Of a DNA stretch of 64,000 nucleotides, positions 14,310 through 55,086 are shown piece by piece. The position numbers and the translations under genes were made by a program. The DNA comes from Escherichia phage vB_EcoM-pEB20. The stretch is taken from the sequence record OP114733; one strand, given 5' to 3'. The notes under the pieces are model-generated. The model was given only the letters and a program-made list of their open reading frames with translations, had not been told where the DNA came from and did not search any database. Within the stretch, counting starts at the first letter, position 1. The number at the start of each line of letters is the position of its first letter.

Positions 14310-15295
14310 TGAAAACAATTATGAAAGGCTACTTTGGTAGCCACCTTTATGGAACGTCTACCCCAGAATCTGACGTTGATTTTAAAGAAATTTATGTCCC
14401 TCATGCTCGTGATATCTTGACCGGTAACGTTAAAGAACATATGAGCAAGAACACGAATAACACATCTTCTAAGAACACAAAAGACGACGTGGACCATGAG
14501 TTATATAGTCTCAAATATTTCTTTAAACTAGCTGCGGATGGTGAAACTGTCGCATTAGATATGCTTCACACTCCACCAAGTCTAGTAGTTAAATCTGATT
14601 TGCCTGATGTATGGAAGTATATTCAAGATAACAGGTCTCGTTTCTATACCACTAACATGAAATCTTATTTAGGGTATGTCCGTAAGCAAGCTTCTAAATA
14701 TGGTGTCAAGGGTTCTCGACTGGCTGTTCTTCGTCAAGCCCTTAAACGTTCTAATGAATGGGGACAATACTTTGATAACGGTGCAGTAATTCGTTTATCA
14801 CATATGAAGAATGTTCTGCCTGTAGGTGAATTTGCTTCATGGGTTGAAATCGAAAACGAGAAAACAGGTAAGCAAACATTCTATAATCTGTTAGACCGTA
14901 AATTCCAAGACACGTTAACCAATAAAGAGTTCAATGCCATCCTGGTTAAACTGGAAGAGAACTATGGTGAACGTGCTCGTAAGGCAGAAGCTAACGAAGG
15001 TATTGACTGGAAAGCATTGAGTCATGCATGTCGTGGTGGACTTCAATTATTGGAAATTTACAAAACCGGCGACCTGGTTTACCCACTTCAGGATGCTCCA
15101 TTTATTCTCGATGTTAAGCTTGGTAAACATACGTTTAAAACTGTACAAGAATTCCTAGAAGATATCGTTGACCAAGTTGAACATGCGTCAGAACAAGCTG
15201 CCAAGAATGGTATGCAACAAAAAGTAGATATGAGTTTCTGGGATGATTTCCTTGAGCAGGTCTATCTCGAAAATCATAATTCTTACTATAAATAA
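14306..15295 (+). CDS. nucleotidyltransferase-fold protein (YFGSHLYGTSTPESDVDF)
   Basis: Classic GS...DxD minimal NTase motif near N-terminus. Confidence 0.6.
   Translation: MMKTIMKGYFGSHLYGTSTPESDVDFKEIYVPHARDILTGNVKEHMSKNTNNTSSKNTKDDVDHELYSLKYFFKLAADGETVALDMLHTPPSLVVKSDLPDVWKYIQDNRSRFYTTNMKSYLGYVRKQASKYGVKGSRLAVLRQALKRSNEWGQYFDNGAVIRLSHMKNVLPVGEFASWVEIENEKTGKQTFYNLLDRKFQDTLTNKEFNAILVKLEENYGERARKAEANEGIDWKALSHACRGGLQLLEIYKTGDLVYPLQDAPFILDVKLGKHTFKTVQEFLEDIVDQVEHASEQAAKNGMQQKVDMSFWDDFLEQVYLENHNSYYK
15287..15294 (+). promoter_or_regulatory. candidate late promoter TATAAATA
   Basis: Exact TATAAATA 33 nt upstream of ATG 15327. Confidence 0.4.
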
Positions 15296-15326
15296 ATAGA
15301 TAAATAACCATTAACTTGAGGTAAAT

Positions 15327-49951: not shown

Positions 49952-50269
49952 ATGAAAACCATCGATTGTAAAGCAGAATTTAAGATTTTTTATCACGGTT
50001 CAAGTAGTTCAGCTAACATCGAAAACATGCTTTGTCCTCCTGAAGAAACAGGAGTTCTGTCTGAAACTGGACGTAAGAAAAACTTGGATCGTGTATTCTT
50101 TACTGAAGATATCGGTTTAGCAAAGATTTATGCAGGACGAGCAGCCCGCTCTTATGGAGGTGAACCACGTCTCTATCGAGTAATTTCTCCGGTAGATGTA
50201 GTTCAAATGAATGATACTAAAGGCGCTACAGTTTATCACGCTGAATGGGCCTTCTGTGAGGAAATATGA
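49952..50269 (+). CDS. hypothetical protein
   Basis: ORF track. Confidence 0.55.
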   Translation: MKTIDCKAEFKIFYHGSSSSANIENMLCPPEETGVLSETGRKKNLDRVFFTEDIGLAKIYAGRAARSYGGEPRLYRVISPVDVVQMNDTKGATVYHAEWAFCEEI

Positions 50270-50454
50270 GCAAATTAACTAAAGTTACTTTTATCGGTTG
50301 GTTTAAAAGCGGTGAGATGTTCACTAAAGATATCATGTTATCAGGTGATCGCGAAGAAATCGAGTGGGTTGCGGTACAACTTGCTGAAGTGAACAAAGCA
50401 TTAGTTAAAGCATTTGTTAATGACGAGAAAGTTTTCGAAGCAGATTTTCGATAA
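50266..50454 (+). CDS. dmd: Dmd antitoxin (inhibitor of RnlA/LsoA toxins)
   Basis: VTFIGWFKSGEMFTKDI..AEVNKALVKAF resembles T4 Dmd as recalled; about 60 aa. Confidence 0.8.
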   Translation: MSKLTKVTFIGWFKSGEMFTKDIMLSGDREEIEWVAVQLAEVNKALVKAFVNDEKVFEADFR

Positions 50455-50525
50455 TTTTAAAATAACTGTTTACAAGCCCCACATACTGTGTTACTATCTT
50501 TCTATCAACTACAGAGGAAATTGAA

Positions 50526-50894
50526 ATGAAAAAATTAATCGCTTTAGCAATGGTATTTGGATTAACCGGATGTGGTGCCCATGGCTTTATCCCTAATAAC
50601 GTTGGCCAACTGATTTACAATCCGAATGTTAAACAGTACGACCACCCTAAAGTTGAAGTGGAAGACCCGGTTACTGTAGGTAATCGAATGATTCAAGCTG
50701 ATGCCCATGCTCAACGTTATCGTGACTCTGATACTGTAGCATTGTCAAAAGAACAACGCGTTAAAGAACATTGCTTACAGGCTACTGAAATCGCATTCAT
50801 TCGCTATGTTGAAACAACTGGTAAAGAGCCTACCCAGAAACAAATCGCGAATAACTACGTACAGTGTATTGAACGTTTAAACAAATTTAATTAA
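50526..50894 (+). CDS. predicted lipoprotein
   Basis: Signal peptide with lipobox LTGC. Confidence 0.55.
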   Translation: MKKLIALAMVFGLTGCGAHGFIPNNVGQLIYNPNVKQYDHPKVEVEDPVTVGNRMIQADAHAQRYRDSDTVALSKEQRVKEHCLQATEIAFIRYVETTGKEPTQKQIANNYVQCIERLNKFN

Positions 50895-50955
50895 TTGGTT
50901 TACACCAAAGTTAAAATAAGATACTATAAACATAACAAATCAAGAGGAAATTAAC

Positions 50956-51204
50956 ATGGAATTATTCGTAGCTAGTTCAGTAGCAGTTTTAATCGCAGGT
51001 ATTGGTTCAATCATCATTTACATGTTGCCTTGGGTAATCGCACTTATTCGTGGTACAAAAAGCACAACAGCAATCTTCTTTGTATCTTTACTCTTTAACT
51101 GGACGATGATTGGTTGGATTGGAACTTTAATTTGGTCTATCGTTGCCGAAAAGAAATCTGCTCAGCAGCCTCAACAAGTAATTATTATTCGCGAAAAAGA
51201 ATAA
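50956..51204 (+). CDS. superinfection-immunity-family small membrane protein
   Basis: MLPWVIALIRGTKSTTAIFFVSLLFNWTMIGWIGTLIWSIV resembles Imm_superinfect family pattern. Confidence 0.55.
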   Translation: MELFVASSVAVLIAGIGSIIIYMLPWVIALIRGTKSTTAIFFVSLLFNWTMIGWIGTLIWSIVAEKKSAQQPQQVIIIREKE

Positions 51205-51208
51205 ACTT

Positions 51209-51243
51209 GTTTACATTATAGATGGACTATAGTATAGTAGTCC
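51209..51243 (+). promoter_or_regulatory. early promoter in inverted repeat (PeSL-like)
   Basis: GTTTAC 51209-51214; GGACTA/TAGTCC arms. Confidence 0.5.
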
Positions 51244-51267
51244 TATCAAATCAACTAAGGAGTTAAA

Positions 51268-51561
51268 ATGAAAAAGTTATCATTGGCAGCAATCTTACTT
51301 GCAGTATCATGTGCACCAGCTCCAGTTACGGCAGGTTATGATAAAGACCTCTGTGAGTGGTCAATGACTGCAAATCAAGAAGATGTTGAACAACAAATCT
51401 TCTCTGATATCATGAACATCACTAAAAGAGACCGTCCTAATATGGTTAATAAAGTTGTTGAACAACTTAAGTCTGGCGGTATCATGCAGTACAACTATGT
51501 TTTGTATTGTGACCCTAATTTCGATAACAAAGATATCGTAACCGAAATCACAGGTGAATAA
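51268..51561 (+). CDS. sp: spackle periplasmic protein (inhibitor of gp5 lysozyme)
   Basis: Signal peptide; GYDKDLCEWSMTA and MQYNYVLYCD resemble T4 Sp as recalled; 97 aa. Confidence 0.8.
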   Translation: MKKLSLAAILLAVSCAPAPVTAGYDKDLCEWSMTANQEDVEQQIFSDIMNITKRDRPNMVNKVVEQLKSGGIMQYNYVLYCDPNFDNKDIVTEITGE

Positions 51562-51562
51562 T

Positions 51563-52213
51563 ATGATTTATTATATGCACAAAAACGCGCCATTTAAATA
51601 TGGTAAATTTCCTAATGCACAATGTTATAATATAACGCCGAATGAAAATAATAATGGATACCATATTGGTGTAATTTTTGTAATTGTTAAAGATAATGAA
51701 ATCGTTGCCTGGGCAGATTTTAAAGGTACAACATATGATGTTAATCCGGTGCCTTTCACATATTACAATATAATGGATTTGGCATATGATTATAATTGGT
51801 TTAATCATGACACGTTGGCTCATATTGAAGGTGTAGGATTTGACATCTCTTATTCTAGCTATTCATTATGTCCTATGAGCCGAGCTCACGGTAAAGATGC
51901 ATCATATCTTTCAATTCGGAAACGTGTAAACTTCAAACGTAGTACAGAGTATGTTGGTGGACTCTTTGTTAAAGATAATAAAATAACCCGTATTAGTTAT
52001 CCTTTAAGTGTAGGTCAAAAAGATGTTGATGTTGATTTGGACTTAACTGAAAATAACATTAATCGCATTGCTTCTGTATATTTTGATATCGATGAAAAAA
52101 TTGTAGTGTGTGGATACGAATTACCACCTGAAGAAAAGGCTGAAGCAATTGAAGTCGAATTAGAAATTTCTGTTGATGACCAAATATTTAATGCATTTAT
52201 GAATCGAGGTTAA
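51563..52213 (+). CDS. hypothetical protein
   Basis: M4 of ORF 51554. Confidence 0.5.
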   Translation: MIYYMHKNAPFKYGKFPNAQCYNITPNENNNGYHIGVIFVIVKDNEIVAWADFKGTTYDVNPVPFTYYNIMDLAYDYNWFNHDTLAHIEGVGFDISYSSYSLCPMSRAHGKDASYLSIRKRVNFKRSTEYVGGLFVKDNKITRISYPLSVGQKDVDVDLDLTENNINRIASVYFDIDEKIVVCGYELPPEEKAEAIEVELEISVDDQIFNAFMNRG

Positions 52214-52938: not shown

Positions 52939-53961
52939 ATGGCTGAATGGATAGATAATGAATTTGCTTATCGTGCGTTTTCTCACCTACCTCGTTTTAG
53001 ACAAATCAATAATTCAAGCACATTTAAATTAACGTTTCGTTGTCCAGTTTGTGGCGACTCTCAGACAGATGCAATGAAAGCCCGCGGATGGTATTATGGC
53101 GGTACTCCTGGTAATGTACATTGCTATAACTGCCAATACCACAATACAATTTCCGGATACTTAAAAGAGTATGATGAAGAGCTTTATCGCGAATATCTAA
53201 TGGAAGTTCGTAAAGAAAAGGCTAGAATGGAACCAAAGATTGAAAAGGTTCCTGAACATAAACCAGAACCGGAGAAAAAGACTATAAATTCTTTGCCGTC
53301 TTGTTCTCGTCTAGACAAGTTGCCTGAAGAGCATCCTATTGTGAAATATGTTAAGTCTCGGTGTATTCCTAAAGAATCGTGGAACAGATTATGGTTCACA
53401 TTGGAATGGCCTAAATTGGTCAACAAGATTCAACCTGGCACATATAAGAAAGAGATTCCCGAACCACGTTTAGTTATTCCTATTTTTAATAAAGATGGGA
53501 AGGCCGAGTCATTCCAAGGACGTGCACTTCGTAAAGATGCTCCTCAGAAATATATCACTATTAAAGCGTTTGAGTCTGCAACAAAAATTTATGGTGTTGA
53601 ACGTGTTAAGGAAGGAGACGTCTGGGTAATGGAAGGCCCTATTGATAGTTTATTCATACCAAACGCAATCGCTATTACAGGCGGCTCAATAGATTTAGAT
53701 GTGGTACCATTTAAAGAACGTCGGGTATGGGTAATGGATAATGAACCTAGGCATCCAGATACTATAGCTCGCATGAAGCGATTAGTTGATGCAGGCGAAC
53801 GTGTCATGTTCTGGGACCGAGCTCCGTGGAGTTCAAAGGATGTGAATGATATGGTAATGAAAGAAAATGCAACACCACAAGAAATTTTAGAATATATGAA
53901 ACAGAATATTTCAAGTGGGTTGCATGCTAAAATGAGATTATCTCGTTATTCGAAGATTTAA
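52939..53961 (+). CDS. 61: DNA primase gp61
   Basis: Zinc ribbon CPVCGDS...CYNC, Toprim-like core; 340 aa; synteny. Confidence 0.9.
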   Translation: MAEWIDNEFAYRAFSHLPRFRQINNSSTFKLTFRCPVCGDSQTDAMKARGWYYGGTPGNVHCYNCQYHNTISGYLKEYDEELYREYLMEVRKEKARMEPKIEKVPEHKPEPEKKTINSLPSCSRLDKLPEEHPIVKYVKSRCIPKESWNRLWFTLEWPKLVNKIQPGTYKKEIPEPRLVIPIFNKDGKAESFQGRALRKDAPQKYITIKAFESATKIYGVERVKEGDVWVMEGPIDSLFIPNAIAITGGSIDLDVVPFKERRVWVMDNEPRHPDTIARMKRLVDAGERVMFWDRAPWSSKDVNDMVMKENATPQEILEYMKQNISSGLHAKMRLSRYSKI

Positions 53962-54155
53962 ACCAGTCCTACAATAGCAAAGGCCAAATCAACTACAGTA
54001 TCCAATGGAACAGAAGGAACTATAATACCATGGGCAACTAACAATGGTGCAATCCCGAAGTTCCATGAAATAATGCCACCTACAACTATTGCAGCGATAG
54101 CAGTTTTCTTTTTATTGCCTTTAATAGCGTTGATTAACGATGGAAGTTTAAACAT
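53958..54155 (-). CDS. small membrane protein on minus strand (convergent with primase); probable late gene
   Basis: Only minus-strand ORF lying in a + strand gap; AAGGAG RBS 7 nt upstream on minus strand; TAATAAATA-like motif upstream. Confidence 0.6.
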   Translation of the reverse strand: MFKLPSLINAIKGNKKKTAIAAIVVGGIISWNFGIAPLLVAHGIIVPSVPLDTVVDLAFAIVGLV

Positions 54156-54245
54156 AATAATCTCCTTAGTTACCTATTATTTATTACGCTTTATAAAATT
54201 AATGTTAGAATTAAACTCTCTTATACTGAATTGAAAGGAAAAATA

Positions 54246-54767
54246 ATGGCGCACTTTAACGAATGTTCACAACTTATTTCTGGTGTTGATAAAGCAGAAG
54301 AAGCTTATTTTAATGCTCTGATTCACGAAGATAAAGACCCACTGCAGGTAATGCTTGATATGCAGAAATCTTTACAGGTTCGTCTGGCAAATGACAAGCC
54401 TGAACATAACAAACATCCTGATGAATTGGCTACTGCTGGTGATGTTGTTGATTGGCTGCGTAATCAGAAAGATTATATTGATGACGAATTCCGTGAACTA
54501 CTGACTTCACTTGGTGGTATGTCCAATGGTGAAAAAGCCGCTAGCTCTGTGTGGAAGCCATGGAAAGCACAACATGCCGAATATCGTAATCGTCGTATCG
54601 ATGAACTGTCTCCTGAAGACCAGCTTGAAATTAAATTTGAGATGATTGATATCCTCCACTTTGTTCTGAATATGTTCCAAGGTCTGGGTCTTTCTGCTGA
54701 AGAAATCTTTAAACTTTACTACTTGAAAAACCAACACAACTTTGAACGCCAGAATAATGGTTACTGA
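54246..54767 (+). CDS. 56: dCTP pyrophosphatase (dCTPase/dUTPase) gp56
   Basis: MAHFNEC...DPLQVMLDMQ...LEIKFE..DILHFVLNMF resembles T4 gp56 as recalled. Confidence 0.9.
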   Translation: MAHFNECSQLISGVDKAEEAYFNALIHEDKDPLQVMLDMQKSLQVRLANDKPEHNKHPDELATAGDVVDWLRNQKDYIDDEFRELLTSLGGMSNGEKAASSVWKPWKAQHAEYRNRRIDELSPEDQLEIKFEMIDILHFVLNMFQGLGLSAEEIFKLYYLKNQHNFERQNNGY

Positions 54768-54773
54768 TTAAGT

Positions 54774-54781
54774 TATAAATA
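54774..54781 (+). promoter_or_regulatory. late promoter TATAAATA upstream of soc
   Basis: Exact TATAAATA 32 nt upstream of soc ATG. Confidence 0.6.
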
Positions 54782-55056: not shown

Positions 55057-55086
55057 AAGGAATCCTTCGGGATTCCTTTTTTTTTT
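55057..55086 (+). terminator. rho-independent terminator (UUCG tetraloop, long U-run)
   Basis: AAGGAATCC-TTCG-GGATTCCTT then run of T. Confidence 0.8.

Follow-up and report, generated by a model that had tools for sequence, protein, structure and literature searches.

A small minus-strand gene opposite the early genes

The window analysed here, a stretch of 64,000 nucleotides from Escherichia phage vB_EcoM-pEB20 (sequence record OP114733), is a segment of a Mosigvirus genome, that is, of an RB69-like T-even phage. We describe a small gene on its minus strand, an open reading frame (ORF) encoding 65 amino acids that runs tail-to-tail into gene 61, the DNA primase gene, and has gene 56 and then soc on its promoter side. 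The ORF lies wholly antisense inside the early 61-to-56 transcription unit, and the 1.4 kb around it are 97.7% identical to the Escherichia phages AV116, NHEP36 and G2469. In a crude six-frame survey of the window it was judged the sole credible minus-strand ORF, since the remaining minus-strand ORFs in the coding gaps of the plus strand mostly start with TTG or GTG and have translations resembling low-complexity sequence. An intrinsic terminator 3' of the ORF was not found in the window.

An earlier note on this DNA, made from the sequence alone, had described a hydrophobic product, a perfect AAGGAG ribosome-binding site, a promoter-like motif further upstream on the same strand and a stop codon that overlaps the primase stop by 2 nt. 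All four observations hold. The product starts with ATG and is strongly hydrophobic (grand average of hydropathy, GRAVY, 1.24). The Shine-Dalgarno sequence is as described, and its position is kept in homologs, as AGGAGG or AAGGAG. Both stop codons are TAA, that of the primase at 53959-53961 on the plus strand and that of the small ORF as the complement of 53958-53960; they have 2 nt in common, and the two coding sequences overlap by 4 nt. The coordinates of all features are given in Table 1.

A conserved family under purifying selection

Over its full length the protein matches PHROG family phrog_2024, whose function is not described (E=1.4e-27; residues 1-65 align with positions 1-65 of the 65-position profile). 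Its ortholog in RB69 is RB69ORF029w, with 97% identity and identical synteny, and it is 100% identical to QBO62721.1 of phage G2469. By tblastn, homologs of the same subfamily are present in 692 phage records, with identities to the window protein above 93% in Mosigvirus and of about 55% in Tequatrovirus, including T4 and T2. A profile search revealed a second subfamily (B-type) in 122 phage records, carried by Klebsiella T4-like phages such as Marfa and pzk-kv8, by JS98-type phages and as a second copy by Gaprivervirus. An exhaustive profile search of 1.84 billion representative proteins returned just 15 at E<=1e-3, all of 33-70 aa and with the core motif present in the full-length ones; matches with as little as about 25% identity still share the length and the motif. 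Across an alignment of 27 diverse sequences W31, N32, P37, G43 and P47 are invariant. The resulting family motif, W-N-x4-P-x5-G-x3-P in a protein of about 57-70 aa, is found in the window protein as well.

Pairwise Nei-Gojobori dN/dS (the ratio of nonsynonymous to synonymous substitution rates) ranges from 0.06 to 0.35 within four clades, counting only pairs whose dS was large enough to be informative. The full-length family match, the dN/dS values and the invariant residues together exclude both a chance ORF and a purely non-coding role. The ORF is thus a genuine, conserved gene of the Tevenvirinae. It is already in the databases as a hypothetical protein and is not a new kind of element. Some database names are apparently wrong, namely 'DNA packaging ATPase' in UPEC01, SAKp28 and MY02 and 'Holin' for UniRef A0A482MZV5. 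A literature search on RB69ORF029w, its accessions, phrog_2024, unannotated small ORFs of T4 and T4 reannotation found no paper on the gene.

A late-type promoter element conserved upstream of the gene

The promoter-like motif of the earlier note is a T4-type late promoter element, AATAAATA, within the 9-nt stretch 5'-TAATAAATA-3' that spans 54186..54178 on the minus strand. Transcription from it would be expected to start near 54172, so that the leader would measure about 17 nt. Every T4-like lineage examined has an NATAAATA element 12-22 nt 5' of the ATG. The heptamer ATAAATA is invariant across these lineages, in contrast to the unconserved sequence around it. Copies of ATAAATA are depleted three-fold in the window (10 observed against 29.5 +/- 5.9 expected), and only two of them fall on the minus strand. 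The other of these (7892) was judged a chance occurrence: it lies inside a plus-strand gene, with neither an ORF nor a ribosome-binding site downstream.

According to Geiduschek and Kassavetis, 32 of 50 T4 late sites are perfect, 9 of 50 have A at -13 and most others show one deviation (PMC2988020), and Nolan et al. found T(-13) to be poorly conserved in RB69-type phages (PMC1524935). In the cryo-EM structure gp55 places bases -12, -9 and -8 into pockets (PMC7892883); all three positions are inside the invariant heptamer. The late-promoter list of Nolan 2006 has no entry near RB69 16030, so the site was not called as a late promoter there. On the minus strand 5' of the ORF we found no sigma-70-like promoter. 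Taken together, late, gp55-dependent transcription of the gene is well supported as a prediction from the DNA, and the earlier expectation of late expression gains from the conservation of the gp55-type element.

The element does not stand alone. On the plus strand it abuts, back-to-back, a MotA-box-like sequence that belongs to a predicted middle promoter of gene 56 and corresponds to Pm:16038, predicted for RB69 (Nolan 2006 supplement). The 81-nt spacer would therefore be a compact divergent promoter region. The locus would clearly illustrate how one late gene can lie antisense within an early operon, its late promoter abutting a middle promoter that faces the other way.

Other late-type sequences occur in the window. 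The gene soc, a known late gene, has a perfect TATAAATA at 54774-54781 on the plus strand, at a distance of 31 nt from its ATG. Behind soc, at 55057-55078, comes a 9-bp hairpin with a T-run; being palindromic, it appears as a hairpin on either strand. Three ATAAATA copies stand at 15288-15306 (+), two of them overlapping and one 1 nt further, and adjoin a TATAAATA at 15287.

Table 1. Features of the locus in the window, of related loci in other phages, and late-type promoter elements by lineage (positions without accession or locus refer to the window)
Feature	Position	Strand	Remark
Coding sequence of the 65-aa protein MFKLPSLINAIKGNKKKTAIAAIVVGGIISWNFGIAPLLVAHGIIVPSVPLDTVVDLAFAIVGLV, stop codon included	53958..54155	minus	ATG start
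Shine-Dalgarno AAGGAG	54162..54167	minus	6 nt 5' of the ATG at 54155
T4-type late promoter element AATAAATA, A(-13) variant of TATAAATA	54178..54185	minus	22 nt 5' of the ATG
Predicted transmembrane helix, codons 18-41	54033..54104	minus	AlphaFold2, invariant columns, RB69 transmembrane segment 21-41
Predicted periplasmic tail, codons 42-65	53961..54032	minus	H-G-x3-P loop (G43, P47) and helix 51-62
Tail-to-tail overlap of coding sequences, 4 nt, TTTAAA context	53958..53961	both	stop of the ORF and stop of gene 61
Gene 61, DNA primase, 340 aa	52939..53961	plus	convergent early-strand neighbour
Predicted middle promoter of gene 56 (MotA-box-like CGCTTTA, 12 nt, TAGAAT)	54186..54211	plus	sequence reading
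Gene 56, dCTPase/dUTPase	54237..54767	plus	early-strand neighbour on the promoter side
T4 homolog, 66 aa	NC_000866.4 17738..17938	plus	within the unannotated 309-nt dam-61 gap
Gaprivervirus tandem copies	L004 2501-2698 and 2707-2907		also loci L005, L016
Homologs outside T4-like phages	L023 4001-4210; L025 4001-4213
GC-rich hairpin between or overlapping the ends of the small gene and gene 61	L021 4205-4224; L028 5193-5215
Late-type element, Mosigvirus: AATAAATA			21-22 nt to ATG
Late-type element, T4: GATAAATA			21 nt to ATG
Late-type element, other Tequatrovirus: AATAAATA			22 nt to ATG
Late-type element, Gaprivervirus: CATAAATA			16 nt to ATG
Late-type element, Klebsiella phages Marfa and pzk-kv8: perfect consensus TATAAATA			19 nt to ATG
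Late-type element, five metagenomic lineages: G/CATAAATA			12-19 nt to ATG

Synteny, paralogs and a gap in the T4 annotation

The convergent arrangement is as widespread as the promoter element. Every T4-like phage sampled has the gene opposite the early strand and tail-to-tail with gene 61; the sample comprises T4, RB69, Gaprivervirus, Klebsiella phages and five metagenomic T4-like contigs, the last with protein identities of only about 25-30%. Most of them have the 4-nt overlap with the gene 61 stop, which is kept in T4, Mosigvirus, the B copy of Gaprivervirus and the Klebsiella phages. In two metagenomic T4-like lineages a GC-rich hairpin (GGGG...CCCC) replaces it. The other flank varies: the direct neighbour is gene 56 in Mosigvirus and dam in T4, and other phages have one to three additional ORFs there. 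Gaprivervirus carries diverged A-type and B-type paralogs in tandem, about 20% identical and 8 nt apart, with the B copy downstream.

T4 is among the best-studied phages, yet NC_000866.4 omits this conserved, selected ORF with its late element. The records of JS98, JS10, SP18 and PEi20 likewise hold a family member without an annotated feature. In a collection of 15 billion proteins the exact T4 sequence occurs solely in Logan read-archive assemblies, without NCBI accession. The integrated T4 transcriptome and proteome study quantified solely the features annotated in NC_000866.4 and hence could not detect the gene (PMC9697503). Adding the ORF to NC_000866.4 would be a concrete annotation fix.

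Several copies of the gene are disrupted. In T4_ev240 (LR597657, locus L029 2900-3110) the ORF is frameshifted by the loss of 1 nt from an A-rich run (AAGAAAC to AAAAAC), which reflects either a dispensable gene or a homopolymer sequencing error. Three database members (P0085, P0102 and P0106) are truncated or frameshifted. CJ20 has lost the B paralog, and in another Gaprivervirus, a viral contig, the start of this paralog is disrupted. Taken together, these sequences suggest that the gene is not essential, but the disrupted copies could in part be assembly errors.

Two homologs (P0113 and P0117) lie outside T4-like phages. Both lie at the end of a prophage-like element, behind genes for the tail tip and for host specificity; one adjoins a serine recombinase and the other host genes, and a weak 'minor tail protein' match (phrog_1924, E=6.8e-8) adjoins them. 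They have no ATAAATA element. T4-type accessory genes are found nearby, namely endonuclease VII, a SegE-like GIY-YIG fragment and a T4-type lysozyme, and a lysis cassette was not found among the neighbours of either homolog.

In the window itself, the early-strand neighbours at 50266-52213 (+) encode Dmd, a DUF5481 protein whose N-terminus, MKKLIALAMVFGLTGC, resembles that of a lipoprotein, a membrane protein of the Imm_superinfect family, Spackle and AdfA, the anti-DarT factor (T4 61.2). The Imm_superinfect-family gene and sp are 2-3 kb from the small ORF.

Predicted architecture of the protein

AlphaFold2 run on the 27-sequence alignment gave a model with a mean predicted local distance difference test (pLDDT) score of 82, with helices at residues 4-13, 15-41 (pLDDT about 90) and 51-62 and a loop at 42-50. 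The earlier note had called for a topology prediction, and this has now been made: one confident transmembrane helix is predicted in 14 of the 14 family members examined. The supplement of Nolan 2006 likewise lists RB69ORF029w with one transmembrane segment at 21-41 and no SignalP entry. In all 14 members the N-terminal flank holds 2-8 K/R, usually with a KK or KR cluster abutting the helix, while the C-terminal tails contain 0-2 K/R and 1-2 acidic residues. The 24 C-terminal residues of the window protein have no K/R and two D and are otherwise hydrophobic. By the positive-inside rule the excess of N-terminal K/R therefore predicts an N-in, C-out orientation.

The invariant residues cluster in this architecture. 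The W31-N32 pair (codons at 54060-54065) sits mid-helix, and P37 lies near the periplasmic end of the predicted transmembrane helix. A polar Asn within a transmembrane helix classically drives helix-helix association. Because an invariant Asn sits in the helix here, we propose that the protein may associate through it. From these sequence features it is very probably a real, late-promoter-driven, single-pass inner-membrane protein.

Possible functions

How might such a protein act? Late in infection gp55-RNA polymerase would transcribe the gene from the NATAAATA element that precedes the ATG by about 22 nt, and translation would rely on the strong Shine-Dalgarno sequence. The 65-aa product would span the inner membrane once, with its basic, amphipathic N-terminus (residues 1-17) in the cytoplasm, a helix of about residues 18-41 crossing the membrane and a tail of about 24 residues whose short terminal helix would be placed in the periplasm or at the membrane interface. 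The invariant W31-N32, P37, G43 and P47 suggest helix-helix association, with itself or with a partner membrane protein. The protein may then serve as a late, non-essential accessory of envelope or lysis-timing processes, and would not be the hole-former itself. We advance this scheme as a whole tentatively, stopping a little short of calling it probable. Its most conjectural step is the envelope or lysis role, which is suggested by the timing, location and architecture; that the protein is a non-essential late inner-membrane accessory of this kind is an idea we hold weakly and regard as possible, on the doubtful side. The gene would be a candidate for the remaining gaps in the late membrane biology of T-even phages, such as lysis timing, lysis inhibition and envelope events.

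Several observations weigh against this scheme. The first position of the promoter is A, G or C rather than the consensus T in most T4, Mosigvirus and Gaprivervirus copies, and therefore the promoter could be weak. Our literature search found no report of a transcript, protein or phenotype for any family member. The grounds for an envelope or lysis role are confined to timing, size and membrane location. The genes t, e, rI, rIII and pseT.2/3 genetically account for lysis and lysis inhibition in T4 with no need of the small gene. No lysis gene adjoins the small gene; in particular endolysin and spanin genes are absent from its flanks, which are primase and dCTPase, although this is a weak criterion (the T4 lysis genes are dispersed). 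The tail-adjacent position of the homologs at prophage ends agrees no less well with an exclusion or tail-related role.

The database searches assigned no function. The window protein had no match in Pfam or NCBIfam at E<=10, the family had no meaningful match in PADLOC at E<=1, and neither a PDB profile search nor Foldseek against PDB gave a match; a search of BFVD returned family members only. The earlier note had suggested a late membrane protein of the holin, antiholin or exclusion type. The late and membrane parts of this suggestion stand as predictions from sequence. The specific functions found no support in the analysis: there is no holin family match and the C-terminus is hydrophobic and uncharged, and no similarity to RI, Imm or Sp was detected.

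The leading alternative is an inner-membrane protein of superinfection exclusion or of a defence type, one that would block DNA entry of other phages or counter a membrane-acting host defence. P0113 and P0117 are placed in the accessory region at prophage ends, the usual place of moron and exclusion genes, and the other strand of the T-even neighbourhood encodes the Imm_superinfect-family protein, Spackle, AdfA and Dmd. However, T4 Imm and Sp act within minutes of infection, and to our knowledge the known T4 exclusion proteins are early, not late. The small gene lies on the strand opposite the early genes, antisense to an early transcription unit, with a late-type element in the T4-like phages and no sigma-70-like promoter. 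The Imm_superinfect and T4_Spackle families both match other ORFs of the window and not this one, and it likewise has no PADLOC or other Pfam match. We consider an exclusion function improbable.

A second alternative would place the protein within T-even lysis control itself, either as a late, Asn-zipper-type transmembrane partner of holin T or as a Hok-like depolarizer that antisense read-through from the primase operon silences early. If true, this component would have been overlooked for decades because the T4 reference annotation omits the ORF. We judge this decidedly improbable.

A related possibility is an autonomous hole-former, holin- or pinholin-like, or a Hok-like depolarizer that accumulates late, with antisense read-through from the primase operon perhaps silencing it early. 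The protein is small, would be late as judged by its promoter and has at least one predicted transmembrane helix, as expected for a holin, and its orientation would be N-in/C-out as in T4 holin T. The ORF is fully antisense within the early 61-to-56 unit, and one UniRef homolog is named 'Holin'. This name is a lone automatic label (A0A482MZV5), whereas hundreds of entries are called 'hypothetical protein'. Matches to holin families all stay below threshold, the best for any member being GTA_holin_3TM at E=0.1 in one distant member. The protein also lacks a hydrophilic, highly charged C-terminal domain, its basic cluster being N-terminal, whereas holins typically carry a charged cytoplasmic tail. 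In T4, t mutants fail to lyse, and thus a second autonomous holin is not expected. We find a hole-forming role highly improbable.

We give only a slight chance to a virion-associated protein that would be made late, packaged and inserted into the inner membrane of the recipient at DNA delivery. The late timing would fit, and the non-T4 homologs come directly after tail-tip and host-specificity genes, near the weak phrog_1924 match; virion mass spectrometry would have missed the protein because the T4 reference proteome lacks its sequence. On the other hand, nothing places the protein in particles, the gene is far from the structural gene clusters, and it is apparently dispensable, with frameshifted copies in circulation.

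It is very unlikely that the helix is a long signal peptide cleaved after the conserved [A/S/T]-x-G (A41-H42-G43) to free a hydrophobic periplasmic peptide of about 22 residues. Most members do have small residues at -3 and -1, together with the invariant G43, a proline at -7 and a basic n-region, but a hydrophobic stretch of about 24 residues with an invariant W-N is atypical, P0112 has F at -3, and the Nolan 2006 entry for RB69ORF029w described above speaks against cleavage. The chance is close to negligible that the locus is a late antisense unit which down-regulates primase mRNA, with the ORF incidental: the convergent overlap with gene 61 and the missing terminator would fit, but the purifying selection on amino acids, the invariant residues, the conserved length and ribosome-binding site, the tandem protein paralogs and the homologs in phages without a convergent primase gene all argue against it.

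Whatever the function of this putative late inner-membrane protein, the useful results are the conserved late-type promoter, the convergent arrangement with the primase gene, the predicted topology with its motif, the tandem paralogs of Gaprivervirus and the gap in the T4 annotation.

Comparison with known systems

The nearest known relative is the family phrog_2024/RB69ORF029w, to which the window protein belongs without any difference and which has no described function. Other comparisons are with small membrane proteins of established role. The T4 antiholin RI is a small membrane-tethered regulator with a similar coarse distribution. This comparison does not discriminate, since RI and the family are both broadly spread among enterobacterial T4-like phages. 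RI combines a signal-anchor-release (SAR) segment at its N-terminus with a globular domain of about 70 aa in the periplasm, and the two proteins share no similarity. Imm, the Imm_superinfect family and Spackle are small envelope proteins of the same phages, as the window protein is predicted to be; they are encoded on the early strand and expressed early, and they show no sequence similarity to it.

Among holins, the T4 holin T, of class III, resembles the window protein, as predicted here, in being late, in having a single transmembrane helix and in its presence in the same phages. Its N-terminus is in and its C-terminus out. T has 218 aa with a large RI-binding periplasmic domain, while the window protein would expose only about 24 residues, and neither sequence nor profile similarity between the two was found. 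The small class II holins or pinholins, such as S21 68, are close to the window protein in size (65-70 aa), in hydrophobicity and in its predicted late expression. Pinholins have two transmembrane helices and a charged cytoplasmic C-terminus, whereas the window protein has one confidently predicted helix and its charges at the N-terminus. Hok-type type I toxins, finally, are single-pass and hydrophobic, as is predicted for the window protein, with about 50-65 aa and an antisense-overlapped gene. They share no sequence similarity with it, and the antisense RNA at the locus described here would be the mRNA of the early operon rather than a dedicated small RNA.

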